A stretch of 64,000 nucleotides of DNA from IMG/VR virus record IMGVR_UViG_3300032322_001107, positions 1 through 64,000 of that record; one strand, given 5' to 3'. Numbering within the stretch: the first letter of the stretch is position 1; every line of letters begins with the position of its first letter. Made by a program: the position numbers and the translations under genes. Below are positions 4,717 through 35,278 of this stretch, piece by piece. Under the pieces are notes generated by a model, which was given only the letters and a program-made list of their open reading frames with translations, was not told the origin of the DNA and made no database searches. This DNA comes from a virus.

Positions 4717-5589
4717 TTATCCGCTTATTTTTACCCAAGTATACCAATTATCATATGGCAAAAGACCAGCCTGTGGGTTGGCCCTATCTGTTGTTATTCT
4801 TTTGAGTGCGTTGTATGCCAAATTGTTAAAAACAATTTGAAATATGTTATTATTGATAACAATTCCAAGAAGCACCTTAAATTGGCTTGGTGTCCCCCAC
4901 TTTACGGGCGACTCTTCTCCAGCGGGTGGGGAATTTTGAACCCCAAGGACAGAAGAAACAATTCTATTAGAGACGGCATTGACTGTTAAAACTACATATA
5001 TCGTTTGAGAAAAGGAAAACAATTCATCCCAATTTCCAGCAACAACATTATTAATTGTACCCGCATTTACTGTGATCGCGTTCGGCGCGGTAAAGGAAAT
5101 TTTGAATGGATGGTTTTGTTCTGCTGCTGTTCCAGTTGATTCTTCGGCAACTTCTGGCTTTCTGTTAAGCCGTGCAACATATGGTGTGCTGGGCCAAAGA
5201 TTGACTGGAGAAAGTGGGGTTGATATAACATCGGTCACAGCCTGCCTAAATGCTGATTGTTGCGATGAGTATTGTGCGGCTTCTGCTTTTATTGTTTCAC
5301 CAGCAAGCCAGTTTGACACTCTTCCAGTTTGCTCAAATCTTTTTAATTCTCTTTCAAGCTTTCTTCCAAGAGATCCACCCTGATTGGCAATTTCTCTAAG
5401 ATTTGAATTGCCATATTGAAGCGCGTTTGTGGCAGTTTCTCTTTGTTGTTTTTTTTCTATATTGCGTAACGCTTCGGCTTCTGCCCTCTCCTTAATAGGT
5501 GTATTGCGTTCTTTTTCAGATTGTATGCGACCTTCTTCAACAATTCTCTTCCTTTCTCTAGCCGCATCTTCGTTTGTCATGTGAGTCAA
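4717..5589 (-). CDS. Hypothetical protein (coiled-coil N-terminus, beta-rich C-terminus)
   Basis: 290-aa ORF tightly packed between its neighbours. The start could be the ATG at 5580. Confidence 0.6.
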   Translation of the reverse strand: MTHMTNEDAARERKRIVEEGRIQSEKERNTPIKERAEAEALRNIEKKQQRETATNALQYGNSNLREIANQGGSLGRKLERELKRFEQTGRVSNWLAGETIKAEAAQYSSQQSAFRQAVTDVISTPLSPVNLWPSTPYVARLNRKPEVAEESTGTAAEQNHPFKISFTAPNAITVNAGTINNVVAGNWDELFSFSQTIYVVLTVNAVSNRIVSSVLGVQNSPPAGEESPVKWGTPSQFKVLLGIVINNNIFQIVFNNLAYNALKRITTDRANPQAGLLPYDNWYTWVKISG

Positions 5590-7961
5590 GAAAGTATAGA
5601 GGCGTCAAAACTAGTAGCGCGGACTAAAAACCATCCAAATTTATATGGCTCGGCAGAGGAACTAATAAGATATTTTCCACTTCTTGGTATATTATTTGGA
5701 CTTGTTCTTGGTATGCTAAAATTTACATTTACCTCTAATTCGTGTTCAAGCGGAATTTCTATATTTACTTCTGGATGAACAATGGTTGATCCGCCATCTG
5801 TTGTTGTGGTTATGGTCTCATAATTCAGTCTTATTGTTTCTGAATCGGCTTCAAGAGTTTCTGATGCGTTAACACTTATTCCCTCTGTCAAGCATGGAGG
5901 AATGTTTATTGATATTGGATTCAAAGACACGAGAGATTCTTCGGTGTTTCCTTTTGTCGGAAGATATCCATATCCAATTGGTGTATTATTTACCTGTAAT
6001 GCTCTTGAAATATATGCTCGTATTTCTTTTTTTTCTGTTTTACCAAAAACTGTGGTTATAAAACTTTTGGGTTTAAACACGGGCCAATTTGCTGATGCGC
6101 CGACCTTGCTTCTTATTGCAGATGATGTCAGGCTTTCCTTTTTTAGGAAAAATAAATGAAGTGTTGCTGGAAGATTTTTTCCCCAAATATCTTCAAATTC
6201 AACTTCTATTTTAGGAACAATAGAAAGCGTCGAAGAAACAGATCCATCATCTTGTTGTGTTAGTGATTTAAATCCACCACTACCACCAGTTGTATCAAGC
6301 TCGCTTACCAAGCTTGATTTTTGTGTTTCAAAAAGAACGCTAACATCTTTAAGAACTCTTGGCAGATCCAAGTCTATAGATGTTGGCATTGTTACGCTAA
6401 ATGCCGAAAGCGTTGCGTTAAGCTGTGACGAATCATACTCTCTAACAAGATGATGAATATCTCCAAGTCCCTCTCCTTCTACGGTAGATGAATTTGGGAT
6501 AGATGTGGAAATATATTCTCTAAACGGGATATTAATTCCCCAGTTTTCTTCCAGTCTTTGGCTTTGGACTTCGTTAAAAATATCTTCTCTTTCAACAACC
6601 GATTTTTGAACAGTAAAATTTGTCGTTCTTTGTTCCGTTTTTGAATATTCTGTTTCTGATAAAACTGGCTGTTGCGCTTCTTCTTGTTCTACGATCTCCT
6701 CTGTTCTGTTTATTGGGGCATTTACGCGAAATTTTTCTGGTATTGTATCTGGCTTTGTTACTGTAAGGGTTTTCGCGTCAAAAACGTCTGGAACCCTGAC
6801 TTCTGTCTTGATAGTTCTTCCGTCACCAAGCGCCTCAATAGATCCATCGATGAGCAGGGCGTCTGGCTGAATTGATTGGGTTTCGGCGGAAAGCCTAAGA
6901 GTGCGAATTGCTACTTGGCCTTGTGGCGTAATAACAGTTTCAGCAAGATCTGTAGATGCGCTAACATCTCTTGTGTTGGTGGAAACACGTTTAACAAATT
7001 GTGTAACCTGTTGTTCTGATTTGGAAAACTCTCCAGTGCCCAAGGCAATGTTAAGGTTGATGGCCCCAGCAATTGTTTCTTCAGTGGTTGTGTCCTCCTG
7101 TGCTGCGCGGAATTTTTCTGGAGTAAGATCAACCTTTGTTTTTTGAATGGATTTACCATTAAACACTTCTGGCGTATCAACAACACGCTCAACTAAAGAT
7201 TCGGCGTCATCGCGGGAAACCTCAACAGTCCTAGTTGCCGTAGGATTTGGAGGAACATAATTTAAAGCGGCCTTGCGTTGGGTGGTAACGGTGACTAGTT
7301 GGCCCTCGTTGTTGGTAGCTTTACCAACTAGTTGCGGGCCGTCCACTTTGTAGGTCTGAACAATCTTAACTGAAAGAAATTCGTTGTACGGCTCGTAGGA
7401 AGTCTGGGTGATGACTCCGTTGACGTTCTCCAGTGCCCCTTCCTCTTCGCCCGTAGGAACGAAGAGTTGGCGGCGTTCTTGAACGGCTCCGCGAGAAGCA
7501 TCATAAAAATCTCGATCTTTAATTGGGAAGAGGGAATTGCCGTCTTCATCCGTTTTAATCGACCAAGTTTCTTCAATCTCATTTGAAACAATGGCAGAAC
7601 CATCGCGTCCCTCGTATGAAATTTTCTTTTCTGTGGTCAGGTCGGCTTGTTGGCCCTCATTCTTAACTGCTCGCCGCCTTCCCTGAATTGGGCCCAGATC
7701 ATCATCATAGCGTGTAAACGGAACCCAAGGGGCAGGCAAGATTTCATAGATATGGGTAACAATCTGATCTCCACTTGCTGGCTGCGCCCCAGTGAATACA
7801 TGGTTGGGATAACGCTTGGAATCTGGATGCGGGCTAAGATCTTCAGGAACTCTATAGCCAGCGGTTCTTGGGTCACGCTTAATCCCAATTACAGGGTAGT
7901 CACGATCATTTGCCGCATAAGAAACAACATATGATCTATCGATAGGAGGATAATCGGCCAT
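5586..7961 (-). CDS. Large repeat-containing hypothetical protein, probably virion-associated
   Basis: 791 aa with an internal repeat (PEVFNGKSIQKTKVDLTPEKFR / PDVFDAKTLTVTKPDTIPEKFR) and its own promoter upstream. Confidence 0.65.
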   Translation of the reverse strand: MADYPPIDRSYVVSYAANDRDYPVIGIKRDPRTAGYRVPEDLSPHPDSKRYPNHVFTGAQPASGDQIVTHIYEILPAPWVPFTRYDDDLGPIQGRRRAVKNEGQQADLTTEKKISYEGRDGSAIVSNEIEETWSIKTDEDGNSLFPIKDRDFYDASRGAVQERRQLFVPTGEEEGALENVNGVITQTSYEPYNEFLSVKIVQTYKVDGPQLVGKATNNEGQLVTVTTQRKAALNYVPPNPTATRTVEVSRDDAESLVERVVDTPEVFNGKSIQKTKVDLTPEKFRAAQEDTTTEETIAGAINLNIALGTGEFSKSEQQVTQFVKRVSTNTRDVSASTDLAETVITPQGQVAIRTLRLSAETQSIQPDALLIDGSIEALGDGRTIKTEVRVPDVFDAKTLTVTKPDTIPEKFRVNAPINRTEEIVEQEEAQQPVLSETEYSKTEQRTTNFTVQKSVVEREDIFNEVQSQRLEENWGINIPFREYISTSIPNSSTVEGEGLGDIHHLVREYDSSQLNATLSAFSVTMPTSIDLDLPRVLKDVSVLFETQKSSLVSELDTTGGSGGFKSLTQQDDGSVSSTLSIVPKIEVEFEDIWGKNLPATLHLFFLKKESLTSSAIRSKVGASANWPVFKPKSFITTVFGKTEKKEIRAYISRALQVNNTPIGYGYLPTKGNTEESLVSLNPISINIPPCLTEGISVNASETLEADSETIRLNYETITTTTDGGSTIVHPEVNIEIPLEHELEVNVNFSIPRTSPNNIPRSGKYLISSSAEPYKFGWFLVRATSFDASILS

Positions 7962-7972
7962 GGAATCCCGAA

Positions 7973-8001
7973 AACTTACTCTAAAAAAGGATGGGCGGCA
8001 A
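7973..8001 (-). promoter_or_regulatory. Sigma70-like promoter for the 7961 operon
   Basis: TTGCCG-17 bp-TAAGTT on the minus strand, 11 nt upstream of ATG 7961. Confidence 0.5.
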
Positions 8002-8014
8002 GATGATTTTCCGC

Positions 8015-8042
8015 TTGCAATGGTTAATGATCATGCTAGATT
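8015..8042 (+). promoter_or_regulatory. Sigma70-like promoter (extended -10) driving a short RNA
   Basis: TTGCAA-16 bp-TAGATT with TG immediately upstream of the -10 (TGcTAGATT). Confidence 0.5.
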
Positions 8043-8048
8043 CCAGAT

Positions 8049-8121
8049 TGGAAGGCATTCGTCTTCCTGTTTTCATGTGTGTGGGGCGGGGTCGAGCTAA
8101 AAACTCGGCCCCGCTTTTTTT
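8049..8121 (+). ncRNA. Putative small RNA (5' hairpin, unpaired seed, intrinsic terminator)
   Basis: GGAAGGC-ATTC-GTCTTCC hairpin, then unpaired TGTTTTCATGTGTGTGG, then a terminator. Bounded by a promoter. Confidence 0.5.
8086..8121 (+). terminator. Rho-independent terminator
   Basis: GCGGGGTCGAG-loop-CTCGGCCCCGC followed by seven Ts. Confidence 0.8.
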
Positions 8122-8127
8122 GAACGC

Positions 8128-8154
8128 TTGACAAGATTGGTTGTCGGATATAAC
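8128..8154 (+). promoter_or_regulatory. Sigma70-like promoter
   Basis: Consensus TTGACA at 8128 with a TATAAC-like -10, upstream of ATG 8171. Confidence 0.5.
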
Positions 8155-8170
8155 GAACACATCTACCTAT

Positions 8171-8794
8171 ATGGCATATCAATCCAACCAACCCAAAGCA
8201 CCAGTCCTATCACATTTCACCTTGGCTAAAAACGGGCCGAAGCTCGTAGTCATTAAATCAGCCCCAAAGTGGGTCAAAAATAATTCATTGTGCGTTATCG
8301 AATTGATTGTTGATGGCGTGGCCCATGTGTATTTCACTGAAAACAAAGACATTGCGTCGAAGTTCCAGCAATATGTGGGTAAGTCCGTAGTGCTGATTGC
8401 CTCTGGCAACTCCAAGCAGAAGACCGATTCCATGGAGATTCAGCCCGCTGGGGTTCCTGCTTCCAGTCTGCCCGCAGTCCAAAGCGCCCCGCAACAAGCC
8501 CAGAAGCCCGTAGAACAGGTTATTACGGCCCCAGTCCACAGGGACAAAGAAGCTAAGCAATTCCTTTGTCAGGCGGCAAACCTGATGCGTCTGTGCGTCA
8601 AGAAGGCCAACGACATTGCGGTAGAACTAAACCTTCCCGAACAGCACCGTCAGGGAATTGCGACCACCCTTTTCATTCAGGCAGATCGCCAAGGCCATAT
8701 TTCAGCCATGCCAATTACAGCTTACACCCCCGAACAATTGGGCTTCGGGTCAAGCAAGGCCGAATCCCTGAATAGTCCACAAGCGAATGACTAA
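8171..8794 (+). CDS. Hypothetical protein (possible ssDNA-binding or recombination protein)
   Basis: Beta-rich N-terminal half, P/Q linker and helical C-terminus. Lies upstream of a Cas4-like nuclease. Confidence 0.55.
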   Translation: MAYQSNQPKAPVLSHFTLAKNGPKLVVIKSAPKWVKNNSLCVIELIVDGVAHVYFTENKDIASKFQQYVGKSVVLIASGNSKQKTDSMEIQPAGVPASSLPAVQSAPQQAQKPVEQVITAPVHRDKEAKQFLCQAANLMRLCVKKANDIAVELNLPEQHRQGIATTLFIQADRQGHISAMPITAYTPEQLGFGSSKAESLNSPQAND

Positions 8795-9062
8795 CTATGG
8801 AGGATGCGGGGATTCCAGACGAAACCACGGCATCGAAATTCTGTCGCATGATAAGGGATCATTCCTCGTTCAAAGTCGGACGAATCGCGAAGACTACTAC
8901 ATGGTGGAATTCGCTACCGATGAAGTCGGGGATATCACAGGGTGTTCCTGCACTTGTCCAAGCTATCAATTCCGCAAAGGGTGCTTCCACATCCGATACC
9001 TCTGTAAACTCTTGGGCGTCGAAACGCCGAAACCAACAAACAACCAACTAATAGCAGCATAA
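8787..9062 (+). CDS. SWIM zinc-finger protein
   Basis: CTCPSYQFRKGCFH matches CxC...CxH. Confidence 0.7.
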   Translation: MTNYGGCGDSRRNHGIEILSHDKGSFLVQSRTNREDYYMVEFATDEVGDITGCSCTCPSYQFRKGCFHIRYLCKLLGVETPKPTNNQLIAA

Positions 9063-9249: not shown

Positions 9250-10119
9250 ATGCCTACTATTACTAACATATTCGGACTACCCCAGCCCTTTGTGGATTTG
9301 GTGAGCGAGTCCAGCTATTCGGCTGGCGAGGCTGATATCACAACCACCAGCCTATTCCAGCCCCCAAAGATTCGGGAGTTGATGAAGCGCCATGGAGACA
9401 AGGTTACTGAGGATGCTTCAGATCGCGTATGGACAATGCTTGGAACAGCCAACCACTACGTTCTGGAACAGATTGCCAAGCGCAACCCCGAACGCTACGT
9501 CTGCGAGGAGAGGTTCTATATGGATGTTGAAGGGGTGAAGCTTGGTGGCCAGATCGATCTCTATGACAAGCAGGAGCAAGTCCTTTATGACTATAAGGTA
9601 AGCGGCGTATACAAGGCTATGAGCGATGATCGCTTTGAGTGGACGGCGCAGGCGGCAGTCAATCGACTCCTACTGGAACACAACGGATATCCAGTAAAAC
9701 GCGCAGCCATCATCTTAGTAATGAAAGATTGGAGGATGCGGGACTCCAAGATCAAGGCCGACTATCCGAAGTGTGCAATTGTGGAAATCAAGCTGGATGC
9801 ATGGAAGCCTGAAGAAACGTTTGCATATATCAAAAGCCGCATTACACTCCATCAGCAAGCAAAAGACCTTTCCGATGACCAGATCCCGATCTGCACACCT
9901 GAAGAGCGGTGGGAAAAACCCACCATCTACGCCGTCCTCCCGAAAGAAGGAGCGAAACGTGCCGTTAATGGAGGGCTGTACGAATCTGAATCTGAGGCTA
10001 AAGAACACGCAAAAAGAATTTCTGGTGCCGTCGAGAGACGGGATGGGAGTTGTGCGCGGTGTTTGGACTACTGTCGAGTGCGCCAGTTCTGCCAATTCGG
10101 AAGAAATCTAAAAGTATGA
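9250..10119 (+). CDS. PD-(D/E)XK Cas4-like exonuclease
   Basis: GTANH, GQIDL and DYK motifs, plus a C-terminal Cys cluster (RCLDYCRVRQFC). Confidence 0.75.
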   Translation: MPTITNIFGLPQPFVDLVSESSYSAGEADITTTSLFQPPKIRELMKRHGDKVTEDASDRVWTMLGTANHYVLEQIAKRNPERYVCEERFYMDVEGVKLGGQIDLYDKQEQVLYDYKVSGVYKAMSDDRFEWTAQAAVNRLLLEHNGYPVKRAAIILVMKDWRMRDSKIKADYPKCAIVEIKLDAWKPEETFAYIKSRITLHQQAKDLSDDQIPICTPEERWEKPTIYAVLPKEGAKRAVNGGLYESESEAKEHAKRISGAVERRDGSCARCLDYCRVRQFCQFGRNLKV

Positions 10120-14069: not shown

Positions 14070-15032
14070 ATGGCTGAACCAATTCAATTTCCGCAGTCTG
14101 GACAAGGAGCCATATTAACTCCTTCAACCTTGGTTTCTCCCGATTTGCCAGAAGAGTGGGGTGGGCGACCCGCAGGAACATCCCGTAGAGCCATCCGAAT
14201 GCAAGAAGATTGGGATAAGCGCAGAGCCGCAATGCTAGAAGAGCAGCAAACCTCACAACAGATGGATGCACAGCGCAGGCAATTAGCTCTTCAAGAGCGG
14301 GATCAATTTATTCAAGATTCAGAATACAATCGCAAACTAAAAGAATACGAAGCGGAACAAGATATCAGGGGGCAGGCAGAAATGGAATCAAACAACATCC
14401 TTGATTGGCTAGGAGGCCGCGCTGTTGATAATCAAGGAAATCCCATTGCCAAACCAGACCCCAAAACTCCAGAATTTCAAACTGAATTTCTTCGCAGGCT
14501 TTCTGAAAATCCCCTTGGTGCAGAATTGAATAAGGGAATTGTAGATCAATACATGGGCGCTAACAAAACCTATTTGGACGCCCAGCAAACCAAGCAAAGA
14601 GAAGAAGCCGCACTTCTGCGTGAAGAGAGGATGCTTGGTCGCCAATTGGCAGCAGAAGAAAGGGCCAAGGGCAGACAAATTGAAGCAGAAGAGAGGGCGC
14701 AAACACGCGCAGAAAAAAAAGCGGAAGAGTCACAAATAATTGGAATAGATAAGGATATTCGCAGAGAAGAGCTTGCATTGGAAGATGTTGCGGCAAATCT
14801 TGGATTACAACGAGATCAGTCTGGAAGATTTAATATTGGCGGGCTTTCTGATACTCAGAAAAAAACATTTAGGGCGGCTGAGAATCGCGTTAGACTTTTG
14901 GAGCAAGACAGGGCACAATTGCAGGGATTTATGTTTGATACAGAGGCAGATGCCCAAGCGGCAATTGAGGCCAAAACAGTTCCCAAGGGAGCTATTATAT
15001 TTATTAATGGCAAAAAAGCTATCAACCGATAA
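14070..15032 (+). CDS. Probable internal virion (ejection) protein, coiled-coil
   Basis: E/Q/R-rich helical protein whose stop overlaps the next start (TAATG). Confidence 0.55.
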   Translation: MAEPIQFPQSGQGAILTPSTLVSPDLPEEWGGRPAGTSRRAIRMQEDWDKRRAAMLEEQQTSQQMDAQRRQLALQERDQFIQDSEYNRKLKEYEAEQDIRGQAEMESNNILDWLGGRAVDNQGNPIAKPDPKTPEFQTEFLRRLSENPLGAELNKGIVDQYMGANKTYLDAQQTKQREEAALLREERMLGRQLAAEERAKGRQIEAEERAQTRAEKKAEESQIIGIDKDIRREELALEDVAANLGLQRDQSGRFNIGGLSDTQKKTFRAAENRVRLLEQDRAQLQGFMFDTEADAQAAIEAKTVPKGAIIFINGKKAINR

Positions 15033-18000
15033 TGCCGATAGAATATCTAGATGATATCGAAGAGGATATTACAGAAGCGGCGGACACTACTCCTGTAGAG
15101 CAACCGCCCGTGGCTGGCATTTCTGAGCCAGTCGCACCAGAACCCTCTGGAGAGTTTGGCGGAAGGATTGAATACATCGAAGAAGAGCCTCTAGAAATAG
15201 AGCCTCCAAGAGATAATAGCTGGGACACACTCCGAGGTTTTGAGGTTTCGATGCGGCAAGTTCCGCAGTTGGCTTACGGGGTTGCGGGGTTGGTCGGTGA
15301 AACCGCAGAACAGCTTACAGGTTACGGAGAAAGTCTTCGGGATTTTGGATTCAAGGGATACCAAGATTGGGCGCAAAGCATGGAGCCAATCTCCAAGGAA
15401 ACTGACGATGTTACGGTGGCTTGGCAACGCGCAAAAGAAGGAGATGTTGGGGCTTTGGTGGATTGGGCACAATATGGAATTGGCTACGCTCTTGGACAGC
15501 TTGGAGAGACGGCGGCGGTTGCTGTATTGGGCGGGGTCGCTGGTGGTGCAGCGGGTGCGGCTGGTGGCCCAACAGCCGTTCCAGCGGCGGCGGGTGGCGC
15601 AGTAGCAGCGGCGGCTGGAAAACAAGGATTCAAGGCTCTTGCCCAAAATCTTGTTGAGAAGGCCATTGCCAATCAGGCAACCAAGATTGTCACCAAACAA
15701 GCCCAAAAAGAAGGCGTTGAACTAACCGCCGAGCAATTAGCCAAACGTGCATCCCAAGAAGCCGTTAAGCGTCAGGCTGGAAAAGAGATTGGATCAAATG
15801 CCGCCATTTTTGCCAATGCTGTCGGTATGCAACTTGGTTCTATTTACGGATCTGCCGAGGAACAGGCGCGAGCAGAGGGACGGGAACTTACGGGAGTTGA
15901 CTTGGCTCGCATATGGGGAACTGGCGTTGCCACTGGCGGTATAGAAGGCGTTGTTGATAAATTTGGTTTGGATCTTTTGAAGGGCAAGCTTTCGGACAAA
16001 CTTCCTGCTGGCAGGTTGGCTGGAGCAGCGGTGGCTGGCGGTATCGGAACTGTTGGTGAGGCGGCAACCGAAGCCGTTCAAACCGTTGGAGAGCGTTTTG
16101 GTGCAGGAAAAGATATCCTTAGTGATGAGGCTATCAATGAATACATCAATGCTTCCGCCTTGGGAGGTTTGGGTGGCGGGGCTATTGGTGGAGTTGGTGG
16201 ATTTATCTCTGGCAACCCCAAGGAAAACGCCGCAGCCAAAGCCAAAGTATCCTCTGAGGCAAATAAAGAGATTGCTCCCGCAAGCGCCGAAACCGTAGCC
16301 CGACAAGCCGATGCCGTCATTGCTGAGACAGTTCAAGAAACCCCCGAACAGCGAGTGGCCCGTCTCCAAGAAGAAGCTACCGCAGCAGCAGGAATAGAAC
16401 TAGAAGAAGAAGCTCCTGTTTCGGGGTTGCCCCCACAACCCGTCACCACGCCCGTAGAACCCACAGCAGAAGGCGAGGTAGCCCCTGTAGAGCCAGTAGT
16501 TGAGCCAGCAGTAGCAGAGCCGCAGCCTGTCGCAGAAGTCGCGCCAGCAGACCAGCCATCGCCAAATCTTGCGCCCCGCGCCGAAGCAGCAGTGGAGGCA
16601 CGGCCAGTCCGCCAAGAGGGCGAACCTATTGGAGACTTTCGCAATCGGAAGGATGCATGGGATGAACAATATGGCACAGATCGTCGCGGCGGGCGAACCC
16701 ACAATGATGATGGAACTCCGTATCAGCCAACCGTTTTTGACGAAACAATATCACAGGTAAATGCGTCTGGTGTCATTGGCACAGATGAGGATGCGATGTC
16801 TGCCGCTATTGGAACAAGATCCGAACTGGAGGCTGGCAATGCCGTCAAGGATCTTGTGAATGCTGGATGGGTGTGGGATGCGGCACAAAACCGCATGGTC
16901 AACCCACAAAATCCCGAACAAAGACCCAGCGATGGACTCGTAGAAGCTAGGCAGGCACCAGCCCCTGTAACGCCAACTGCCCCCGCAGTGACTCCTCCCG
17001 CCGAGGTGGCTCCTGTTCCACAATTAGCACCAATAGAAGTAGAACCGCAAGTTGCCGCACAAAAAGCTATCGATGCCTCTAGACTTTCTGGAAGCACATT
17101 AGGCATGGACAGGGCCAATCAAGGAGTCGAACAGGCAAGAGAGGTTGCTTATGATGCGAAGAGAGAAGCATCACTTCCAAAAACACCGATTGATATTGCA
17201 ATTCAAACATGGGAGGTGGCTGGTAATGAAACAAAATATGGAGAACCAAAATTTGCTTCTGGGGAGTTGGGCTTTGCTGTTTCAGGTGGGTACGATAAAT
17301 CCACAAATGAAGTAAAACTTAGTAACAACCCAAGAGAATTTAGCTCCACTTCTGGAGACTCAGCGTTGACCCCAAGATCTGTTGTGCGCCACGAACTTGG
17401 ACATTGGGCATTGTTTAATGCGGCAGACAACGACTTGGTTCGTCGCCTGTTTGAGTGGGCTGACACCGCTGACAAAACTGGAATACTTAATCCTTGGCAT
17501 GGAGGAAAAGCTGGAGTTGCTTATCCTAAAACAAAATTCGATTCACGCGATGAATTGGTTTCTGAAGCATATTCCATATGGAAATCTGGAGGGAGTGTTC
17601 CAAATAATGTTATCCCGCTCTTACAGGATCTGGACGCACTTATTCCAACCAATCTTCAAAATGAGGCATTGCAATTTGCAGATTCTCATTCAGAAAAACT
17701 TGGTGAACGCCCATCTGCTTCTCAGGTATTAAACGCGGATCGTCTACGCCGAGTAGTAAGAGCAGAACAAGCCCCAGAAGACGTTCCTTCCTTGGTGGAT
17801 GCGGGGTTGGTCGAGGTGTATAAAGATCAACCAGTGCTTACCGAGGCAGGGATTGCCCAGTTGCCCGAAGCAGAACGCCCAAGGCTGAACCCCGAAGCCC
17901 GAAAGATCCAGATCGACACAGGATCAAACGAAGTAGTAGCCGAAGCCATCGCGAAAAATCTTCGTATCGGGGTCGATCAGGTTGGAACTGGTGTGCGTAT

Positions 18001-21000
18001 GCCCGCAGGCTGGACTCTGGTAGAGGATATCTATGTGCCGCCAGCCCCGCAGGAAGTTGTCCCAGAAGCGCCTGTTGCGCCAAAAGTTGAGCCAGAAGCC
18101 ACTGAAGAAGAGCCAGCCAAAGTAGATCCTATCGACACGTTTAAGGGTGGTATTCGGGATTCGGGATTTAAATATCTAACATATTCAGATTTCAGAAGGG
18201 AAAACAAAACCCAAGACTGGGAAAAAGAAGGTGGGGTAACAATAGACGAAAGCTACTATCCTACGGCAGTTGTTGGCGATACCAGAGTAGCATTCGGAAC
18301 CAACGGACTCTATGTATTCAAAAATCAAGTAAAAGAGCTTTACGAGTCCGATGTTGATGAAAACGGAAACACAATATTTACCATCCAGAGAATCGTTACC
18401 CCTGAAGACAAGCGTGGACAGGGGAGTGCGAGTAAGGCGCTGACCCAGATCACAGATGCGGCGGACAAGGCTGGCCTAACACTCCAGCTTCAGCCCGCAG
18501 TAATCAGCACACTTGTCGGCAAAGGCGGCAAGGCTCTCAACGCAAAGCAACTTGTGGATTGGTATAAACGAAATGGATTTGTCCAGAAGTTTGATGGCAG
18601 CGATGCCGTCCTTATCAGAAAACCAGTGACTTCAGCGGTTCCAGAGGTGATTCCGCCAAGACCAGCAGATGTGGAGCCAGAACCCGCCGCAGAACAAGAG
18701 CTTCAATCCGTTGTCGATAAGTATCAAACATCCGAACCAACCGCTAGGATGATACTTGCCAACCTTAATTTTGAAGCCAAAGAGGCTGGAGTTATTCCAG
18801 ACGGGTGGGTTGTTGAAACAATAGGTGGTATAAAGACGGCACTTTCTCCCGTGTTTCAAAAAACAAGACGGGACATTCAAGTTGCAATTAGAAAATTTAC
18901 AATACGTGAAAGAGGTGCATTGAGTGCTAGATTTTTCAAGGAAGGATGGATTAATGAAGACCAAAGCAAGGAATATCTCCGTGAAGCAATTAGCCAAAGC
19001 TCTCAAGAGCGGGTCACAGCCGCCGAAGCCGAGGCGAACGAGAGATTCGACGCTCTTGTTGAAAGAATTGTCGGAGAAAACAGAGCAAACATTTCAAGTG
19101 TTGTCGGAGAAGTATCAAAGCCGACAATTGATCTTGAGGCAGAAGAACAAGCCAGAGCAGAAAAGCCATCAGTATCTCCATCAGAAGTATTAGATCCGAA
19201 TGAAATAGAGTTCATGTCGGCAAGACAGGCTTTGAAAAAGCTTGCCGAATCCAATGTGATTAGTTTCAGCGATAGTGGAGCCAGCGGAAAAGCGCGGTGG
19301 AGATATACTGGAAAAATGGTAAAGCCTCAATATGTGAGGCTTCAAGAAGCGGCCTCTGTTCTTGCAAAAACTAATCTTCGCACCCTTGATGCCGAAAGAA
19401 TAAACATCAGTGGAGATAAAAGCGGGAGAGCAAACAGAGCCTACGCTGGAGATATATTTATACCAAGAACAGAGGGCAGTGATAGACGCACTGCATATCT
19501 TGAACCATGGGTTTTGTTGCATGAGGTTGGGCACACCCTTACGTCTGATGCATTTCAGAAATATGTTCCAGATAAGGGATTGATTGGTGCTGATTATTAC
19601 AAACAGCTTAAAGACACACTAAAGAACAAGAAGGTTCCAAGAGAAGTAAGGCGGGCTATCACGCTTTACATAGACACAATCAAAGCACTTGGATTTGAAA
19701 AAGAATATTTCAAAAAGGGAGGACTTGCCAGCAACAACGCTGATCGCGGATTGAGGAACGCAGCAGCAAGAACGTCAAATAAATTAATCAATCCGTTTAC
19801 TGGAAATGAAATAACACGGGATGACATGTATGCGCTTGCCGACATGCATGAGTTTTACGCGCAAGCTTGGAATAGCGAGTCCTTCCAAGACATTCTCAAG
19901 CAGATCAAGGTTGAGCCACAAAGAAGTGCATTCCAAAAGTTTGTAGAGATCGTCAAAGACATTTTTGGATTTGAGTCGGACACAATGGCATATGCCGTGA
20001 TCGATACCTCTCTCAGACTTGCCTCGCTTGAAGCACCAACAGACACTGGAGCTACTATTGAAAGCAGGATTAAAACGCAAAAAGAATTTCGCGCCGTCAA
20101 GGAGTTGCCGCGAACAAAAATGCGTTGGACGAATTTTGGCAACGGAAAATACGGAGGAGACCGAGTCAAAATGTCCAGAAACAAGTTTGTAAAACTTGGA
20201 TATGATATGGCCCATTTTACAATCACCAAAGGATACAAGGGTGTTTTCGGCGGTGGTGGTAATCAATGGTCTGTGCGTGTTTCCATAGAAGAGTTTTACA
20301 GCAAGGGTAAAAAAGCTAACCAGCTTTTGCCGCAGACTGAAATTTTTGTAAGGACATTTGATAGCAAGGCCACAGCCGAAGAATTTGCTGAAAGGCTTGC
20401 GTCTGATGTCAATGGGATGGTTAATGAAAAATACGGAGCCTTGAAGAAAGGGGCACCACAACCACCGACTACTCGCGGAAAGCCCGCTCCAAGACCAAGA
20501 TTTGCCCCCGCCCCCGAAGTAAGAGAATCCCGCAGAGAAGACGCCATCCCCACCTTCTCCGAGGGAAGCCCCGAAGCCACAACCCTTTCTACTATGGCAG
20601 CAGCAATGGCCAAAGTGGATGGCGCATCCGAGGCCAAGCCAAACCCCGAAAACAAACCCACCTACAAGATCAGCGAGATAGCCTCCGTCTGGATGGATCA
20701 GGGTGGAGATGTTCGCCAACTCCAAGACCTTATCTCAGAGAATACCAATCTTACCCCAACCAATGCAGCGAAGGTGGCCAATGCCATTGCCAAGCAATAC
20801 GATATCCAGCAGTCCATTGCTACGGCCTTCATCGAAACCCAAACGGGATTGTCTGTTGAGGCACTACCCGAAGGTGTAACCCTTCCCAAGGAGGTTGACC
20901 CTGATCGTCCGCGCCCCGTCATGCAACGCCTTTTTGATGTATTTATGGGTGTGCGCGTTAAACCAGTTAAGATTACTGGTGATGAAAAGGCATTGCTTAA

Positions 21001-24000
21001 AAGTCAAATTCGTCTAAAGGCCGCAGCCAATCGTGCGGCAAAACAGGAGCAGCAACGCACCGCAGACGAGGTTGTTGAGATTATCAAATCCATGGAGCTT
21101 CGCGGCCCCGTTCGTCCGAAACAAGCCCAAGCCCTTGCCAAACGTGCAGCCAAAGTCATTTGGACTAGCGAGAAGTCCATGGAGAGCTTTGTCGAATACG
21201 CTGCCAAGGTGGTAGAGAACGCCAACTATGATGCCGATCTTCGCGAGGCCAAGGCAGCACAGAAACGCGCCAAGGAACTTTCCAAACAGAAGAGAGTCGC
21301 TATGAGTCCGCAGCGCCTGATCTTGCAACAAATCGGAAATGTCGCAGTTAACAAGCTGGATGATCCGCGCATGTTTGCCGAGATGATCAACTACTACTTG
21401 CGTGGATTCAAGGATGTGCGTTCTCCTGATTATGTAGTTGTTCCTGATGAAGAAATCACGGGCTACATTTCTCAACTTGAAACAGAGTCTGTTAAGGATC
21501 AAGCCGAGGTAGAGCGCGAGACCAACGAAAGGCTTGCCCGCAAATACGACCTTGATCCAAATACTATTCCAGAGTTGATGAGCCTTATCAACATCATTGA
21601 AGAGATTGAAGGCAGGGAGAATCGCGAAGCCTTGGAGTCCATCCTTACAGACAAAGCAATCGAAACCCAAGACGGGTTGCGCGGCTACGACACAACCGCG
21701 CTTACCAACACTCAAAAGAAATTGGTCGAGTCAATGCTTGGTGTGGATCTCAAATCCATCAATAACCAAGAGAAGCAAATGTTTATTCGTATTGCCAACA
21801 ATATGATTTACAACAATCAGACCAATGGCGCGGAATACTTTGTGGCTACAGCCAAGGGTCAGCAGAACGCTCGCAAGGCGGCACAGGATTCAAAAATGAT
21901 CCAACGCAACAAGGCTTGGATTCCTCTTATTCCTTCATTCGGATCTTTGAAACTTCAGGAAACCCTTCGCAACTTCTCTTTGGAATTGCAATCGGTAGCC
22001 GACACCTTCCGCAACGTCTTCGGAAAAGACTTCATGGCCAAGGCTTACGAGATGATGGGCATGTTGGATTTGAACGAGGGATTCACCAAGGCCAATAACA
22101 CCATTGATGAAATACAAGATCTGATGGCAGAGTTCCACCAAGGCAACGAAAAGACATACGGTGACGCAGCCCGCAATCAAGACGGCATTCTTTCTGAAGG
22201 TGTGGCTGGATTCTTGATCCAAGAATTTCCGTTCAAGGATGAAGCAACTTCAATTCAGCAACGCCGAAACCTGATCAATGAATATATCGCCAATGCCCGT
22301 GAGTCGCGCCAAAAAGACCGTGTGGCTATGGCAGATCGCGTTGAGGCAATCCTAAACAAAGTTGATGGGGCTTCTGTTCAAGAGATCTTGAACAACATGA
22401 AGCGCGAATACCGCCCGAACTATGATTCTCTCATGTGGTATAAGGATGTTCTGTTCCCGAAATACAAAGACTTCCTCAAGCAGTTTGACGAGAACTTCAA
22501 CGATCAGGCCAATAACTACGATAGCCCCAACTATCTTCCGATTGCCTTCACTTCGGCTGGCCCAGCCTTGGCACTTGGCCCCGAAGACGTAAGTATTGCC
22601 AACTCAATTTCTCTCCAGCCCAAACAGTCGGTCTATACGATCAAGCGTCAGGATTACACCACGCTTCCAAAAGACAAGGACGGCAACCCTAAAGAAATTG
22701 AATTCAATCTTCGTCGCACCGCATTCAATAGCCTGTCAGACCAGATCAATAAGGCTTACACCAACCCTGCTTGGCAGCAGATTTTTGCGTTTATGAAGAC
22801 GCCAGAATCCATTGAGTTCTTTGGGGACAAAGCTAATCGTGATTTCTTTGTAGATCGCCTCAATAGGTTGCGAGCTTCCAGAGCAAGGCGTGGATCGGTA
22901 AGTGGAGGAGCTTTGGAAAAAGCACTTGATTCTTTCAGTATTATCTCCAGAAAGCTTGGCACTGGCATCGCGCTTGGTGGTGTATTCCAATGGATTAAGC
23001 AGCCCCCAGACCAGCTTCTTACGGCACTTGGAAGCGGAGGACGAGCAGATCTTCTGGCTAAAAACATTGCTCCATCTACACAGAAAGCGGCTAGAGAACT
23101 ATTAAATCAGTTTTCGATTGGAAGGCGCGGCGACTCATCTGCTGGTTATAAATACATTAACCAGATGGAGGGCCATCAAAGCCGCATGGAGCGTTATTTC
23201 TCAGAAAGTAAATGGGAGCAGGCCAAGGAACAAGGCGGAAAGATTGCTGATGTTTGGATGGTGGCTCTGAAGAAATCCGATTTCATTTCGGCCTCTGCTG
23301 CATGGATGACTTACTACGAAGGAGAGTTAAACAAGAACGACATCAAGATTGATGATTGGGCCAAGGAAGCCGAGCTTGTCAAAACCGATCCTGTCAGACG
23401 TCAAGCGGCAGCGTATGCCGAGCAGATGACCGACATCTATCAGGGTTCTAGCGACCCGACATCCATGGCAACATTTGCCCAGAGCGGTAAAACTGGATGG
23501 GAGAACTTCACCAAGGCTTTGCTTGTTCCGTTCAACTCATTTGCCATCCAGCAACGCATGAGGCTTTACTCTGATGCCAGAGACGCACTTAATGGAACCA
23601 GTGGCGGCAAGGGAGGACTAGCTGGAACCATTGGTGGCCTTATCCTTTTCCATACCACAAAACGATTTGTTCTTCCTGTTATTTCTGGAGGAACCGCAGC
23701 CATTCTTTACGGAATGCTGGGAGTTGACATGGAAGAGCCAGACGAAGAGAAGCAGAAAGAGATGGCCGACAGGAACTGGCGTCAGTTCTTGGCCGACATT
23801 ACTGGCAACTTGCTGGTTGGCGGAACCCCGCAGCTTGTTGAAAATAGGACGATTGAAGCCTTTAACTATGCTTCTTACATGGTTGGTTTACAGCTTGAGA
23901 GCGAAACTGTCATGGATGAAAACGGAGAGATTATGTCATTTGACAAGTATTCCAAAGAGCGTTCTCCATTCTATCGCTACAAGTCTTACGATAACGCCAT

Positions 24001-24265
24001 GAGTCTTGGCATGTTTGATATCGGATTTGATCAAGCAAAAGAAACAGCCCTTCAAACCAAGATGCTGATGGATCGGGACGAGATGGAAATGTATACTCCA
24101 GAAGAACAGCGACTGCTTTACTTCTCCGCCCTTTCAGAATGGCTCTATCTCATGCGCCTCAATGACACAGACTTCGCTCGCATTGTGAAAAAGGCCCGCC
24201 GCGATATGATCAAAGCAGCCGAAGAACGCGAGAAGGAATTGGCCCGTATCCGCGCTGGACGCTAG
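15032..24265 (+). CDS. Giant polyvalent ejection protein (two zincin metallopeptidase motifs, GNAT domain)
   Basis: 3077 aa with a G/A-rich hydrophobic N-terminus. HELGH near 17390, GNAT motifs RGQGSASKAL...WYKRNGF near 18370-18610, HEVGH near 19520, and a long helical C-terminus. Confidence 0.75.
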   Translation: MPIEYLDDIEEDITEAADTTPVEQPPVAGISEPVAPEPSGEFGGRIEYIEEEPLEIEPPRDNSWDTLRGFEVSMRQVPQLAYGVAGLVGETAEQLTGYGESLRDFGFKGYQDWAQSMEPISKETDDVTVAWQRAKEGDVGALVDWAQYGIGYALGQLGETAAVAVLGGVAGGAAGAAGGPTAVPAAAGGAVAAAAGKQGFKALAQNLVEKAIANQATKIVTKQAQKEGVELTAEQLAKRASQEAVKRQAGKEIGSNAAIFANAVGMQLGSIYGSAEEQARAEGRELTGVDLARIWGTGVATGGIEGVVDKFGLDLLKGKLSDKLPAGRLAGAAVAGGIGTVGEAATEAVQTVGERFGAGKDILSDEAINEYINASALGGLGGGAIGGVGGFISGNPKENAAAKAKVSSEANKEIAPASAETVARQADAVIAETVQETPEQRVARLQEEATAAAGIELEEEAPVSGLPPQPVTTPVEPTAEGEVAPVEPVVEPAVAEPQPVAEVAPADQPSPNLAPRAEAAVEARPVRQEGEPIGDFRNRKDAWDEQYGTDRRGGRTHNDDGTPYQPTVFDETISQVNASGVIGTDEDAMSAAIGTRSELEAGNAVKDLVNAGWVWDAAQNRMVNPQNPEQRPSDGLVEARQAPAPVTPTAPAVTPPAEVAPVPQLAPIEVEPQVAAQKAIDASRLSGSTLGMDRANQGVEQAREVAYDAKREASLPKTPIDIAIQTWEVAGNETKYGEPKFASGELGFAVSGGYDKSTNEVKLSNNPREFSSTSGDSALTPRSVVRHELGHWALFNAADNDLVRRLFEWADTADKTGILNPWHGGKAGVAYPKTKFDSRDELVSEAYSIWKSGGSVPNNVIPLLQDLDALIPTNLQNEALQFADSHSEKLGERPSASQVLNADRLRRVVRAEQAPEDVPSLVDAGLVEVYKDQPVLTEAGIAQLPEAERPRLNPEARKIQIDTGSNEVVAEAIAKNLRIGVDQVGTGVRMPAGWTLVEDIYVPPAPQEVVPEAPVAPKVEPEATEEEPAKVDPIDTFKGGIRDSGFKYLTYSDFRRENKTQDWEKEGGVTIDESYYPTAVVGDTRVAFGTNGLYVFKNQVKELYESDVDENGNTIFTIQRIVTPEDKRGQGSASKALTQITDAADKAGLTLQLQPAVISTLVGKGGKALNAKQLVDWYKRNGFVQKFDGSDAVLIRKPVTSAVPEVIPPRPADVEPEPAAEQELQSVVDKYQTSEPTARMILANLNFEAKEAGVIPDGWVVETIGGIKTALSPVFQKTRRDIQVAIRKFTIRERGALSARFFKEGWINEDQSKEYLREAISQSSQERVTAAEAEANERFDALVERIVGENRANISSVVGEVSKPTIDLEAEEQARAEKPSVSPSEVLDPNEIEFMSARQALKKLAESNVISFSDSGASGKARWRYTGKMVKPQYVRLQEAASVLAKTNLRTLDAERINISGDKSGRANRAYAGDIFIPRTEGSDRRTAYLEPWVLLHEVGHTLTSDAFQKYVPDKGLIGADYYKQLKDTLKNKKVPREVRRAITLYIDTIKALGFEKEYFKKGGLASNNADRGLRNAAARTSNKLINPFTGNEITRDDMYALADMHEFYAQAWNSESFQDILKQIKVEPQRSAFQKFVEIVKDIFGFESDTMAYAVIDTSLRLASLEAPTDTGATIESRIKTQKEFRAVKELPRTKMRWTNFGNGKYGGDRVKMSRNKFVKLGYDMAHFTITKGYKGVFGGGGNQWSVRVSIEEFYSKGKKANQLLPQTEIFVRTFDSKATAEEFAERLASDVNGMVNEKYGALKKGAPQPPTTRGKPAPRPRFAPAPEVRESRREDAIPTFSEGSPEATTLSTMAAAMAKVDGASEAKPNPENKPTYKISEIASVWMDQGGDVRQLQDLISENTNLTPTNAAKVANAIAKQYDIQQSIATAFIETQTGLSVEALPEGVTLPKEVDPDRPRPVMQRLFDVFMGVRVKPVKITGDEKALLKSQIRLKAAANRAAKQEQQRTADEVVEIIKSMELRGPVRPKQAQALAKRAAKVIWTSEKSMESFVEYAAKVVENANYDADLREAKAAQKRAKELSKQKRVAMSPQRLILQQIGNVAVNKLDDPRMFAEMINYYLRGFKDVRSPDYVVVPDEEITGYISQLETESVKDQAEVERETNERLARKYDLDPNTIPELMSLINIIEEIEGRENREALESILTDKAIETQDGLRGYDTTALTNTQKKLVESMLGVDLKSINNQEKQMFIRIANNMIYNNQTNGAEYFVATAKGQQNARKAAQDSKMIQRNKAWIPLIPSFGSLKLQETLRNFSLELQSVADTFRNVFGKDFMAKAYEMMGMLDLNEGFTKANNTIDEIQDLMAEFHQGNEKTYGDAARNQDGILSEGVAGFLIQEFPFKDEATSIQQRRNLINEYIANARESRQKDRVAMADRVEAILNKVDGASVQEILNNMKREYRPNYDSLMWYKDVLFPKYKDFLKQFDENFNDQANNYDSPNYLPIAFTSAGPALALGPEDVSIANSISLQPKQSVYTIKRQDYTTLPKDKDGNPKEIEFNLRRTAFNSLSDQINKAYTNPAWQQIFAFMKTPESIEFFGDKANRDFFVDRLNRLRASRARRGSVSGGALEKALDSFSIISRKLGTGIALGGVFQWIKQPPDQLLTALGSGGRADLLAKNIAPSTQKAARELLNQFSIGRRGDSSAGYKYINQMEGHQSRMERYFSESKWEQAKEQGGKIADVWMVALKKSDFISASAAWMTYYEGELNKNDIKIDDWAKEAELVKTDPVRRQAAAYAEQMTDIYQGSSDPTSMATFAQSGKTGWENFTKALLVPFNSFAIQQRMRLYSDARDALNGTSGGKGGLAGTIGGLILFHTTKRFVLPVISGGTAAILYGMLGVDMEEPDEEKQKEMADRNWRQFLADITGNLLVGGTPQLVENRTIEAFNYASYMVGLQLESETVMDENGEIMSFDKYSKERSPFYRYKSYDNAMSLGMFDIGFDQAKETALQTKMLMDRDEMEMYTPEEQRLLYFSALSEWLYLMRLNDTDFARIVKKARRDMIKAAEEREKELARIRAGR

Positions 24266-24906
24266 ATCAGTCCGCGCTTCTTAGCCTCGTCCAATTCTTC
24301 CTGAGTCCATTGCTGGGCATACCAGACTTGGCTATCCCAAGGTAGCGGTCTCATGCGGTCAACTCCGAAAGAAAGCCTTCCGTAGTTGTTGGGGCTATTC
24401 TCTTCTAGCTTCACAAACTTGTCCTCTGGTAACATATCCTTATCATGGGGGAGGAATAAGTAGCCCCGCAAGAAATCCAGAATGAAACTATGGCGGATTA
24501 GGAAGGTTGATTGGGCGCAATTCATCCAAGGCGCGGCATCCATCTTTGCCCCAAAGACCATGCCCTTGTCACCAAGATCCTCGTACATCTTTTCAGGAAC
24601 CCACCCGAACCACAGGCAATCAGCTTCTTTGTAAATGAAATCTCTACCACAGTTGTAGGCAATCATAGCCAGCGCACAGACAGAGGCCGACCAGCCACAC
24701 AACCCTTCGCGATCTTCTTTGATTAGGTCTCCGACATGGCCCACGTTATTATCCAAAAAGATATCCCCCTCCAATCCACTACTGTAGTCCGTGGACATGA
24801 TATAGTAGTTGTTGGAATACCCTTCGGTGTTAGCTTTCCAAACCCCAAGCATCATCTCGTCCCAATCGCAGCGACGATGGTAGCCCGAACCAATGATGTA
24901 ATTCAT
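24262..24906 (-). CDS. Glycosyltransferase-like protein
   Basis: YKEADCLWFG (DxD-like) and PEDKF motifs. ATG 24906 overlaps the upstream stop. Confidence 0.5.
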   Translation of the reverse strand: MNYIIGSGYHRRCDWDEMMLGVWKANTEGYSNNYYIMSTDYSSGLEGDIFLDNNVGHVGDLIKEDREGLCGWSASVCALAMIAYNCGRDFIYKEADCLWFGWVPEKMYEDLGDKGMVFGAKMDAAPWMNCAQSTFLIRHSFILDFLRGYLFLPHDKDMLPEDKFVKLEENSPNNYGRLSFGVDRMRPLPWDSQVWYAQQWTQEELDEAKKRGLI

Positions 24907-25466
24907 TTCTTGCGGTAGATAGATAGGGTGGGCTTTATCCAACGTGCCGTAGCAATAGACCTCAAATCCCGCGAGAAGTCTTCCATCCACTGGTATCCCC
25001 AAAACTCAAAGATATCATTCCAGTAGGATTGTGGCTGGCAGTTGACATGGTGGTGACCGCCCGTAGACCATTGCGGTTCCGAGTAGGTCATGGCCACGAT
25101 CTGGGCTGAGTTAAACGTAGCCATATAGTTGTTAACATACTGCTGTTCAACGTGTTCGACAAACTCGCAAGACCAAGCCAGATCAAAAGATCTATTTGGT
25201 TTGTATGGGCCTTGGGTGTAATCATGGATCATTATCTTGTCTTTGACTGGGCTATGCTCAAGAGCCTTGTAAGATCCCTCAATCCCGATGGCATCCACTC
25301 CGTTGTCCATAAACCACTTGATTGCGTGACCTTCTCCGCATCCAATATCAATCAAGTTTTTTGGTTGGAAGATATCGATTAGCTTCTGCCACACGATTGG
25401 ATCGTAAGTATCTGGGTCTCCGCCCTGAACAAACCCTCCGAGATGGCCGTCTTGCACTAAAATCAT
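24903..25466 (-). CDS. Class I SAM-dependent methyltransferase
   Basis: LIDIGCGEG, FDLAWSCEFVEHV and GHHHVNCQ, a pattern typical of glycan-associated methyltransferases. Confidence 0.85.
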   Translation of the reverse strand: MILVQDGHLGGFVQGGDPDTYDPIVWQKLIDIFQPKNLIDIGCGEGHAIKWFMDNGVDAIGIEGSYKALEHSPVKDKIMIHDYTQGPYKPNRSFDLAWSCEFVEHVEQQYVNNYMATFNSAQIVAMTYSEPQWSTGGHHHVNCQPQSYWNDIFEFWGYQWMEDFSRDLRSIATARWIKPTLSIYRKK

Positions 25467-25972
25467 TTTATTGCCTCCATAATAATGGTTTCGATTTCGT
25501 TATTGTGATCACCAATTACTTTTCCATGGCCTTCCAACTCACTAAATCCGCAGCCACAAATCTTATCTGGATCAAATCCAGCAGCAAAGAAACAAGCTTC
25601 AAGAATCGAATGATTCCAAGCCGAGAGATGGCCGTGATCCAATAGGATAGACTGAACAGCTTTTCGTTTCGATCCATCCCCGAATCCAGATTGCCCGTGC
25701 CATTTGAGATACGGCCCGTCTGCCAAATCGTAGATCTTATCTACGCTAGGAACTGCAATCCGTAGTATCCCATCTGGTTTTAGGATTCGGTAGGATTCAG
25801 TGAAAAACCTCACGGCATCAGGGGTTGTGGTATGCTCGACTACATGCTCCGCAAAGATAAAATCAATTGAATTGTCTTTATATGGAAGGGGTTTGGTAAT
25901 GTCCAGATCCGCATCATGGTTCTCCCAGCCATTCAGAATGTTTCCGCCACATCCAAGGTTTAGTTTAATCAT
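25463..25972 (-). CDS. SAM-dependent methyltransferase (type 11-like)
   Basis: KLNLGCG, FAEHVVEH and RILKPDGILRIAVP motifs. Confidence 0.85.
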   Translation of the reverse strand: MIKLNLGCGGNILNGWENHDADLDITKPLPYKDNSIDFIFAEHVVEHTTTPDAVRFFTESYRILKPDGILRIAVPSVDKIYDLADGPYLKWHGQSGFGDGSKRKAVQSILLDHGHLSAWNHSILEACFFAAGFDPDKICGCGFSELEGHGKVIGDHNNEIETIIMEAIK

Positions 25973-34827: not shown

Positions 34828-34856
34828 TTGCCTGCGGATTGATCCCGCTCTATTTT
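34828..34856 (+). promoter_or_regulatory. Sigma70-like promoter, probably leaderless
   Basis: TTGCCT-17 bp-TATTTT, with ATG 34865 8 nt downstream and an AT-rich upstream region. Confidence 0.5.
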
Positions 34857-34864
34857 TGCCCCTG

Positions 34865-35218
34865 ATGAACGCATCACCTACACACACACAAACGGGCGCG
34901 GGGGCAACTGCCGCGCAGACAGAGGCTAACTTTAAGGCCACGCTCGCGGGTCTTTTAGCGACTGGTAAAACCGAATCAGAGGCTTATGATATCCTCGCGG
35001 CAGACGGGACAGGGGTTTATTTTTATGACATCCTGCCCCCGAAAACTGTTTCTGTTTCGGAAGCGGAATTCCGCTCTATTGCCAGCACGAAGAACGCCCC
35101 CGCTGTTCGCATGCTCCAAAAGGCTGGGGGAACGGAGGATTCGTTTTCTGTAGTTTATAGGGCATGGGGGCGCGGCCCCGTCATTGACCTGATCCATGAC
35201 TTTGTCCCTATCTTCTAG
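34865..35218 (+). CDS. Monocistronic hypothetical early protein
   Basis: Has its own promoter and terminator. Confidence 0.65.
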   Translation: MNASPTHTQTGAGATAAQTEANFKATLAGLLATGKTESEAYDILAADGTGVYFYDILPPKTVSVSEAEFRSIASTKNAPAVRMLQKAGGTEDSFSVVYRAWGRGPVIDLIHDFVPIF

Positions 35219-35239
35219 GCGCGACCCAGTCTAGTCTTA

Positions 35240-35278
35240 AGACCCCGTCAGGCGAAAGCTTGGCGGGGTTTTTCTTTT
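35240..35278 (+). terminator. Rho-independent terminator
   Basis: ACCCCGTCAGGC-GAAA-GCTTGGCGGGGT followed by TTTTCTTTT. Confidence 0.85.

Follow-up and report, generated by a model that had tools for sequence, protein, structure and literature searches.

The phage small RNAs that have been studied come mostly from temperate phages of enterobacteria. Lambda OOP, P22 sar and DicF are phage or prophage small RNAs with their own promoter and terminator, OOP and sar being cis-antisense to an opposite-strand gene; in the lambda PR'-6S RNA-tR' late gate a constitutive promoter makes a short terminated RNA with the operon lying right downstream. Enterobacteria also carry GcvB (Rfam family RF00022). 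Its G/U-rich region is described as silencing ACA/CA-rich translation enhancers (PMC3879156), and GibS is described as pairing across start codons in Bacteroides thetaiotaomicron, which does without Shine-Dalgarno (SD) sequences (PMC7366714). P1/P7 c4 and AgvB are listed as further phage or prophage small RNAs (PMC12197685).

Here we describe a phage locus that very likely holds a free-standing gene for a non-coding RNA of ~72-74 nt (8047/8050-8121, plus strand). The product is probably a regulatory RNA, and its G/U-rich middle mirrors the phage's own translation starts. The phage record is 72,849 bp long with terminal repeats, measured at 123 nt, and has a G+C content of 47.7%; the window, the whole stretch of DNA that was analysed, is bases 1-64000 of that record. 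Its gene content includes a primase, a DnaB-type helicase, a large terminase and tail proteins, and no tRNA was found in the 64-kb window. A search of 50,697 phage records (blastn/tblastn) returned no match for the intergenic DNA or for the 791-aa protein encoded beside it. Against deposited phages the terminase gave a single weak match and the helicase only generic DnaB matches at an identity of <=35%, and the 207-aa protein on the other side of the locus had zero relatives across 185,579 prokaryote genomes. Judged by these searches, the phage belongs to a lineage of uncultured ~70-kb phages, for which no cultured relative was found among deposited phages. SD usage is absent genome-wide, with an SD-like core at 11 of 100 starts against a background of 11.2%, and the lack of SD together with TTG-N19-TAnnTT promoters hints at a Bacteroidota-like or other SD-independent host, read against what is described for such bacteria (PMC7366714). 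A protein atlas gave a weak lead to clusters mainly of viruses or Cyanobacteriota. Elsewhere in the window, two neighbouring methyltransferase-domain open reading frames (ORFs; 24903-25972) resemble one split or overlapping gene.

The RNA unit occupies a divergent gap of 209 nt between the 791-aa gene (5586..7961, minus strand) and the 207-aa gene (plus strand, ATG at 8171), with the following features:

7973..8001, minus strand: divergent promoter of the 791-aa gene, -35 TTGCCG (8001-7996), 17-nt spacer, -10 TAAGTT (7978-7973)
8015..8042, plus strand: promoter of the small RNA, -35 TTGCAA (8015-8020), 16-nt spacer, TG (8034-8035), -10 TAGATT (8037-8042)
8050..8067, plus strand: 5' hairpin (H1), 7-bp stem GGAAGGC/GTCTTCC with one G-U pair, loop ATTC
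8068..8084, plus strand: unpaired tract, the proposed seed, 17 nt, TGTTTTCATGTGTGTGG
8086..8121, plus strand: intrinsic terminator, 11-bp G+C-rich stem (8086-8096 with 8104-8114), 7-nt loop, T7 at 8115-8121
8120..8145, plus strand: TTGAAC-N16-TGTC box, which bounds the RNA and lies outside it
8171..8794, plus strand: 207-aa gene, the conserved downstream neighbour, without Pfam or PHROG match

As a short phage-encoded RNA proposed to act antisense at ribosome-binding regions, the unit resembles OOP, sar, c4, DicF and AgvB. It differs from OOP and sar in that 8015-8121 overlaps no opposite-strand gene. It also differs from c4, which is described as being processed from a longer transcript, and from AgvB, which is described as mimicking the C/A-rich targets of GcvB, whereas the phage RNA is the opposite, G/U-rich (PMC12197685). 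The likeness to GcvB lies in the single-stranded G/U-rich seed (the R1 region in GcvB), in the C/A-rich, initiation-promoting targets at or just upstream of starts and in the reach of many targets by low-complexity pairing, the last two being proposed for the phage RNA. However, GcvB is ~200 nt long, chromosomal and works with Hfq in SD-using bacteria, whereas the phage RNA is ~73 nt long, phage-encoded, set in an SD-less system and equipped with a seed that would also cover the AUG; it has no sequence or model match to GcvB. GibS and FopS of B. thetaiotaomicron come close in other respects, being described as trans-acting small RNAs that pair across the start codons of SD-less mRNAs, with a conserved unstructured seed and an intrinsic terminator at the end; in the same accounts they are bacterial and longer, with extended 5'-terminal seeds (PMC7366714, PMC11697453). 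The phage RNA has no model match to them.

Inspection of the sequence placed the promoter, 5' hairpin, unpaired tract and terminator each where a preliminary description of this DNA had put them. Transcription is predicted to start at ~8047-8050, 1-3 nt upstream of H1. The fold and layout are clearly above chance: the 77-nt stretch has a minimum free energy (MFE) of -35.2 kcal/mol compared with a mean of -20.5 (sd 2.9) for shuffles (z = -5.08), none of 200 shuffles being as stable. The single-stranded, G/U-rich tract at 8068-8084, UGUUUUCAUGUGUGUGG, is open in both the MFE and the centroid structure, and across 36 homologues its core has a mean unpaired probability of 0.73 against 0.44 for the whole RNA. 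The T-run that follows the terminator stem is found on the plus strand only. A consensus scan omitted the small RNA promoter, which matched 8 of 12 hexamer positions at a threshold of 9, and also the main terminator, flagging the 5' hairpin alone. In a dedicated scan of the 72.8-kb genome, that terminator is one of only two with a perfect stem and a T tail.

The unit is widely kept among related viruses. Querying with the 207-aa protein yielded 65 related viral loci at 48-94% identity, and every one of the 66 related phage sequences (the window included) carries the RNA unit, as a single copy per genome. A pattern parse of promoter, RNA and terminator followed by TTGAAC succeeds in 61 of these, and the five that do not parse (L060, L071, L072, L073 and L080) are matched by a covariance model at E <= 0.12; the next-best model matches on either strand of the window have E >= 1.1, and paralogues were not found. 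In 64 of 66 sequences the unit is placed ~50 nt before the 207-aa gene. In the other two, insertion of an HNH endonuclease gene after the terminator has left it 660-960 nt further upstream. These HNH homing-endonuclease genes sit just after the RNA terminator in L060 (3343-3927) and L080 (3103-3960), others sit just before the RNA promoter in L030 and L042, and the RNA unit is intact in every relative with such an insertion.

Promoter geometry is retained along with the RNA. The pattern TTGCA[AT]-N16/17-(T/A)AnnnT parses in 61 of 66 sequences, with a -35 box of TTGCAA or TTGCAT in all 61 and a -10 of TAnnTT; a 16-nt spacer with TG at -15/-14 is seen in 49 of the 61, and in five more after re-parsing by eye. 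Within the clade of the window (35 distinct sequences) the promoter spacer is only 63% identical, compared with 95% for the hairpin, 97.6% for the unpaired tract and 97.4% for the terminator. By this measure and by a plain alignment of 34 sequences, in which three of the four invariant columns fall in it, the tract is the best-conserved part of the unit. Common to all clades is (UG)n with n = 3 to 8; in front of it there is usually CAU or CAUAUG, and UUUUC is often found there too.

Both hairpins covary. A covariance model built from 18 close sequences was used to align 36 homologues from all clades; in this alignment, which is fitted to the model's structure and therefore biased towards it, 97.7% of cells are paired and 17 of 18 pairs vary on both sides. 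None of 500 shuffles matches the observed value on any of five measures, and sliding the partners by 1-3 columns as a control leaves pairing at only 48-62%. Changes on both sides occur in 6 of 7 pairs of H1 (93.9% of cells paired) and in 11 of 11 pairs of the terminator (100% of cells paired). Separate folds of each sequence give the same two-hairpin layout with quite different stems, the H1 stems of other clades being GAGGG/CCCTC, GAGG/CCTC and GGAAG/CTTCC. A clear 5' hairpin is missing in L062-L064 and L075, and L065 and L067 display the tract in a hairpin loop. MAFFT alone misaligns the clades, so that a consensus fold of all of them recovers just a piece of the terminator, and the model-guided alignment was therefore used. 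Seed conservation and covariation in relatives, both named beforehand as tests of the small RNA, thus came out in its favour.

No Rfam 15 family, GcvB, C4 antisense RNA and Bacteroides small RNAs included, reached its gathering threshold on the 64-kb window. On 7900-8250 at E <= 10 only two chance-level matches appeared, with sub-threshold scores of 17.1 bits for L20_leader (threshold 58.7) and 13.3 for ncS16 (threshold 48). The exact 23-mer of seed plus terminator is shared by 23 viral and 9 metagenome contigs; none of 185,579 prokaryote genomes contains it. By comparative evidence, which is clear, this is a new RNA family in an uncultured phage lineage. Of what characterizes an independent intergenic small RNA gene of bacterial type, it has a promoter of its own, a terminator on the same strand, a covarying structure and no conserved ORF. 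Retained promoter geometry, covarying hairpins and the terminator strongly support an independent small RNA gene on the plus strand, and we regard a real RNA gene as highly probable.

Coding by the same DNA was weighed on both strands. On the plus strand, changes in the length of (GT)n shift the reading frame, so there is no conserved coding. Read on the minus strand, the DNA gives CCCACACACAUGAAAAC.., which has the form of a typical start site in this phage and might open a mini-gene for a short peptide, of 31 codons here. Under a matrix of 36 early starts the complement of the tract ranks 11 among them and in the top 6% of 2450 ATGs, so that by this score the minus-strand sequence resembles an early start, and the ORF begins MKT, as do several early genes. 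Its length is unstable, however: from the CAT of the tract, ORFs of 3, 5, 10, 12, 13, 14, 16, 17, 18, 28, 31 and 33 codons and one open frame were counted in the 46 of 66 sequences in which the pattern was found, the 31-codon form in 12. The frame traverses the variable, indel-bearing promoter spacer, and the peptide is conserved only at residues encoded by the hairpin. There is no minus-strand promoter upstream of it (on the right side), the T-run is confined to the plus strand, and the pattern of conservation matches the plus-strand promoter boxes. The preliminary description had set conservation fitting the 31-codon ORF as one of the findings that would speak against its small RNA; with 3-33 codons among relatives, no such fit is seen. 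We consider a peptide gene here extremely improbable and rejected the ORF as a gene on account of its variable length and the absence of a promoter to its right.

The surroundings of the unit bear on two further readings. The ATG of the 791-aa gene at 7961 sits 11 nt past its -10 box, so the mRNA should be nearly leaderless, and the arrangement TTGnnn-N16-18-TAnnTT with an ATG 7-13 nt on parses for this gene in 57 of 66 relatives. The -35 boxes of the two divergent promoters (8001 and 8015) stand back to back, 13 bp apart, and both promoters are conserved. This layout would suit an element that works as DNA, the plus promoter serving the back-to-back promoter of the 791-aa gene, or the site being an insulator, an origin or a Z-DNA-prone tract, to which CATG(TG)n, an alternating pyrimidine/purine sequence, would lend itself. 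Yet it is the transcribed part that is 97-98% identical, against the 63% of the promoter spacer, and the 5' hairpin covaries as RNA. We judge a DNA-level role very unlikely, and equally so the accompanying notion that the short RNA is a by-product with no function of its own. A replication origin in particular was rejected, as the region has neither an A+T-rich unwinding element (55% A+T) nor a skew turning point near 8 kb.

On the other side, the gap ends in the TTGAAC-N16-TGTC box, of which the genome has seven copies compared with ~0.14 expected (8120-8145, 46088, 42098 (minus), 41057 (minus), 30074 (minus) and 1789 (minus) in the window, and 72148 in the genome). Six of the seven stand 10-25 nt upstream of same-strand start codons; an extra variant reading CGTC lies at 38411 (minus). 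The boxes look like a second, ECF-sigma-like promoter class with very short leaders, and the copy at 8120-8145 is probably the own promoter of the 207-aa operon. No sigma factor for these boxes was recognized among 10 proteins scanned. The genes that follow the 207-aa gene encode a weakly matched SWIM zinc-finger protein and a PD-(D/E)XK/Cas4-like exonuclease (8787-9062 and 9250-10119), possibly a recombination module.

Like the lambda late gate, the unit has a promoter and a short terminated RNA directly ahead of an operon, and it could be a promoter-leader-terminator gate for that operon, from the 207-aa gene to a 3077-aa gene. The short RNA would then be the terminated product, a phage factor would later permit read-through, and the tract would be the RNA site of that factor or a pause site. 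Such a gate fits the steady distance of ~50 nt to the 207-aa gene (64 of 66 sequences), and in L060 the HNH gene starts 12 nt past the terminator on the same strand without an obvious promoter of its own, its position and the weakened T-run there suggesting read-through. What separates the locus from the lambda gate is the recurrent TTGAAC-N16-TGTC box between terminator and gene (7 against 0.14), the inferred promoter of the operon, which travels with the operon and not with the RNA unit: with the RNA unit 660-960 nt away, in L060 and L080, the box has stayed beside the 207-aa gene. No Q-like factor was recognized either, nor any other antiterminator gene, when ~35 of ~100 proteins were scanned against PHROGs or Pfam. 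Alternative pairing of the tract with a terminator arm is impossible because both are G/U-rich, and an attenuator of that kind was rejected. Overall we find a gate, the chief alternative to a free small RNA, unlikely. The 3077-aa ORF (window 15032-24265, plus strand) has no PHROG family match, and homologous giant ORFs occur in the relatives G001, G002, G004 and G005. It had also raised the idea of an N4-like hairpin promoter, which was rejected for lack of a PHROG match to the ORF and of conservation in the loop and sequence of the hairpin.

For the RNA itself, pairing of the open tract with C/A-rich start regions appears to be the most economical mechanism, one for which GcvB and GibS are precedents. 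The G/U-rich unpaired tract would act in trans by base pairing, spanning C/A-rich SD-less leaders, the AUG and the first A-rich codons (a target reading ..CACACAUGAAAAC..), and pairing at the start region would block ribosome loading. It may target mRNAs of the host, or else phage early genes with (CA)n leaders in a changing set. Since the seed is constant while the early genes are mosaic, a host mRNA or a class of leaders would be a likelier target than one fixed phage gene. To the full mechanism, a phage small RNA pairing in trans with C/A-rich start regions, we give tentative credence, a little short of an even chance. If the seed truly masks C/A-rich leaders and starts, it would show how phages control SD-independent translation and would offer a compact, testable module in which a 17-nt seed faces a few candidate start sites. 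Should the targeting prove wrong, the unit would still mark a transcription architecture that relatives conserve, and its back-to-back host-type promoters, near-leaderless gene and second promoter class should be useful in annotating these phages.

Complementarity to the phage's own gene starts is only marginally above chance. Some genes have A/C-rich leaders, a few of them A/C-only; these genes lie mostly in the minus-strand block at 24-43 kb. Six start-site pairings had been proposed beforehand, and all of them exist; anchored on the AUG over 17 positions, they agree with the proposal to within a pair:

start 30029: 14 Watson-Crick pairs of 17 positions
start 32231: 11 Watson-Crick and 2 G-U pairs, in a run of 13
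start 32759: 13 Watson-Crick pairs and 1 G-U pair
start 36225: 13 Watson-Crick pairs and 1 G-U pair
start 37586: 12 Watson-Crick pairs
start 29551: 11 Watson-Crick pairs, 9 consecutive

In the comparisons that follow, gene starts come from a simple ORF rule and duplex energies ignore target structure. Comparison with shuffled controls over all start regions, suggested in the preliminary description as a check, gave no excess for the proposed pairing: at <= -10 kcal/mol there are 25 hits among all 99 predicted starts compared with 28.4 +/- 6.9 in composition-matched shuffles. Mean energies show no excess either (-8.44 against -8.56 kcal/mol for shuffled seeds), nor does the inclusion of alternative ATGs produce one. 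With six genomes and their own seeds, five show no excess and G003 alone exceeds its controls (12 against 5.1 +/- 2.5). The early minus-strand block of 38 genes, selected after the hit positions of the preliminary description were known, has 6 starts at <= -15 kcal/mol where full shuffles give 1.06 (p 0.005), and where shuffles with the CAU held fixed give 2.42 (p 0.015-0.017, G000). Across genomes, the full-shuffle excess in this block is 6 against 0.92 in G000 (0/120) and 5 against 1.1 in the nearest relative, G005 (0/120); with the CAU fixed, G005 gives p 0.12, and at this threshold the excess is absent in G001, G004 and G002.

The best duplexes genome-wide, the antisense of the RNA itself aside, lie mostly inside genes or on the wrong strand, with start 32231 ranking ~8th and start 30029 ~18th. 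Among 42 ortholog clusters present in at least 4 of 6 genomes, a test that misses most small early genes as too poorly shared, the best mean z is -1.72, a value equalled by shuffled seeds in 33% of 60 trials. No conserved orthologous target was found over the six genomes, and the best candidate, the 345-aa gene at 32231, has no match in G005, which is 96% complete and has an identical seed. The earlier claim that the RNA represses a class of early genes in trans is thus supported only in part: the early block shows an excess over full shuffles that shrinks with the CAU held fixed, five of six genomes show no excess over all starts, and a conserved target was not seen.

The (UG)n repeat invites a different reading, in which the (UG)n/U-rich tract between the hairpins is a site for an RNA-binding protein of host or phage, which it would titrate or recruit. 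The invariant feature is the UG repeat, with n from 3 to 8, which suits a protein that reads repeats as well as it suits a duplex, and a specific pairing target was not found. Against this, the CAU or CAUAUG before the repeat in most clades and the UUUUC before that in many are an exact mirror of AUG plus AAA-type codons, a mirror that a protein site would not need, and no candidate protein is known. We hold protein binding to be improbable.

The leader of the DUF4406/DUF6378 gene (from genome position 72505 onward, across the end of the record; L136-L212) is near-pure A/C in ~75 loci. It is ~20-25 nt long, almost free of G and U, and holds up to (CA)9 in L197. Its composition is conserved and its sequence drifts, while the seed stays fixed, a pattern more in keeping with a general enhancer than with one fixed duplex, though shifts of register against such a drifting A/C leader would be tolerated by a (UG)n seed. 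Extended to its limit, pairing would make the RNA a general anti-leader that, on accumulating, shuts off a whole class of the phage's early messages, and host messages like them. Its seed would mirror the A/C-rich leader, AUG and A-rich second codon that replace the SD, and the varying length of (UG)n would let it pair in more than one register with (CA)n leaders that evolve fast. SD-independent initiation would then have an RNA-based switch from early to late translation. We think this broad form doubtful, with a low probability.

A second small RNA at 34.7-35.3 kb was considered and rejected, the (CA)5 tract and terminator there belonging to a leaderless 117-aa ORF. This ORF, at 34865 within the plus-strand stretch 34829-35268, has a host-type promoter and is near-leaderless, lying 7 nt after TATTTTTG, and no homologue of it was found in five relatives. 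It carries (CA)5 at codons 6-9, the one other perfect terminator of the genome (35243-35268) comes after it, and it is a candidate target only.
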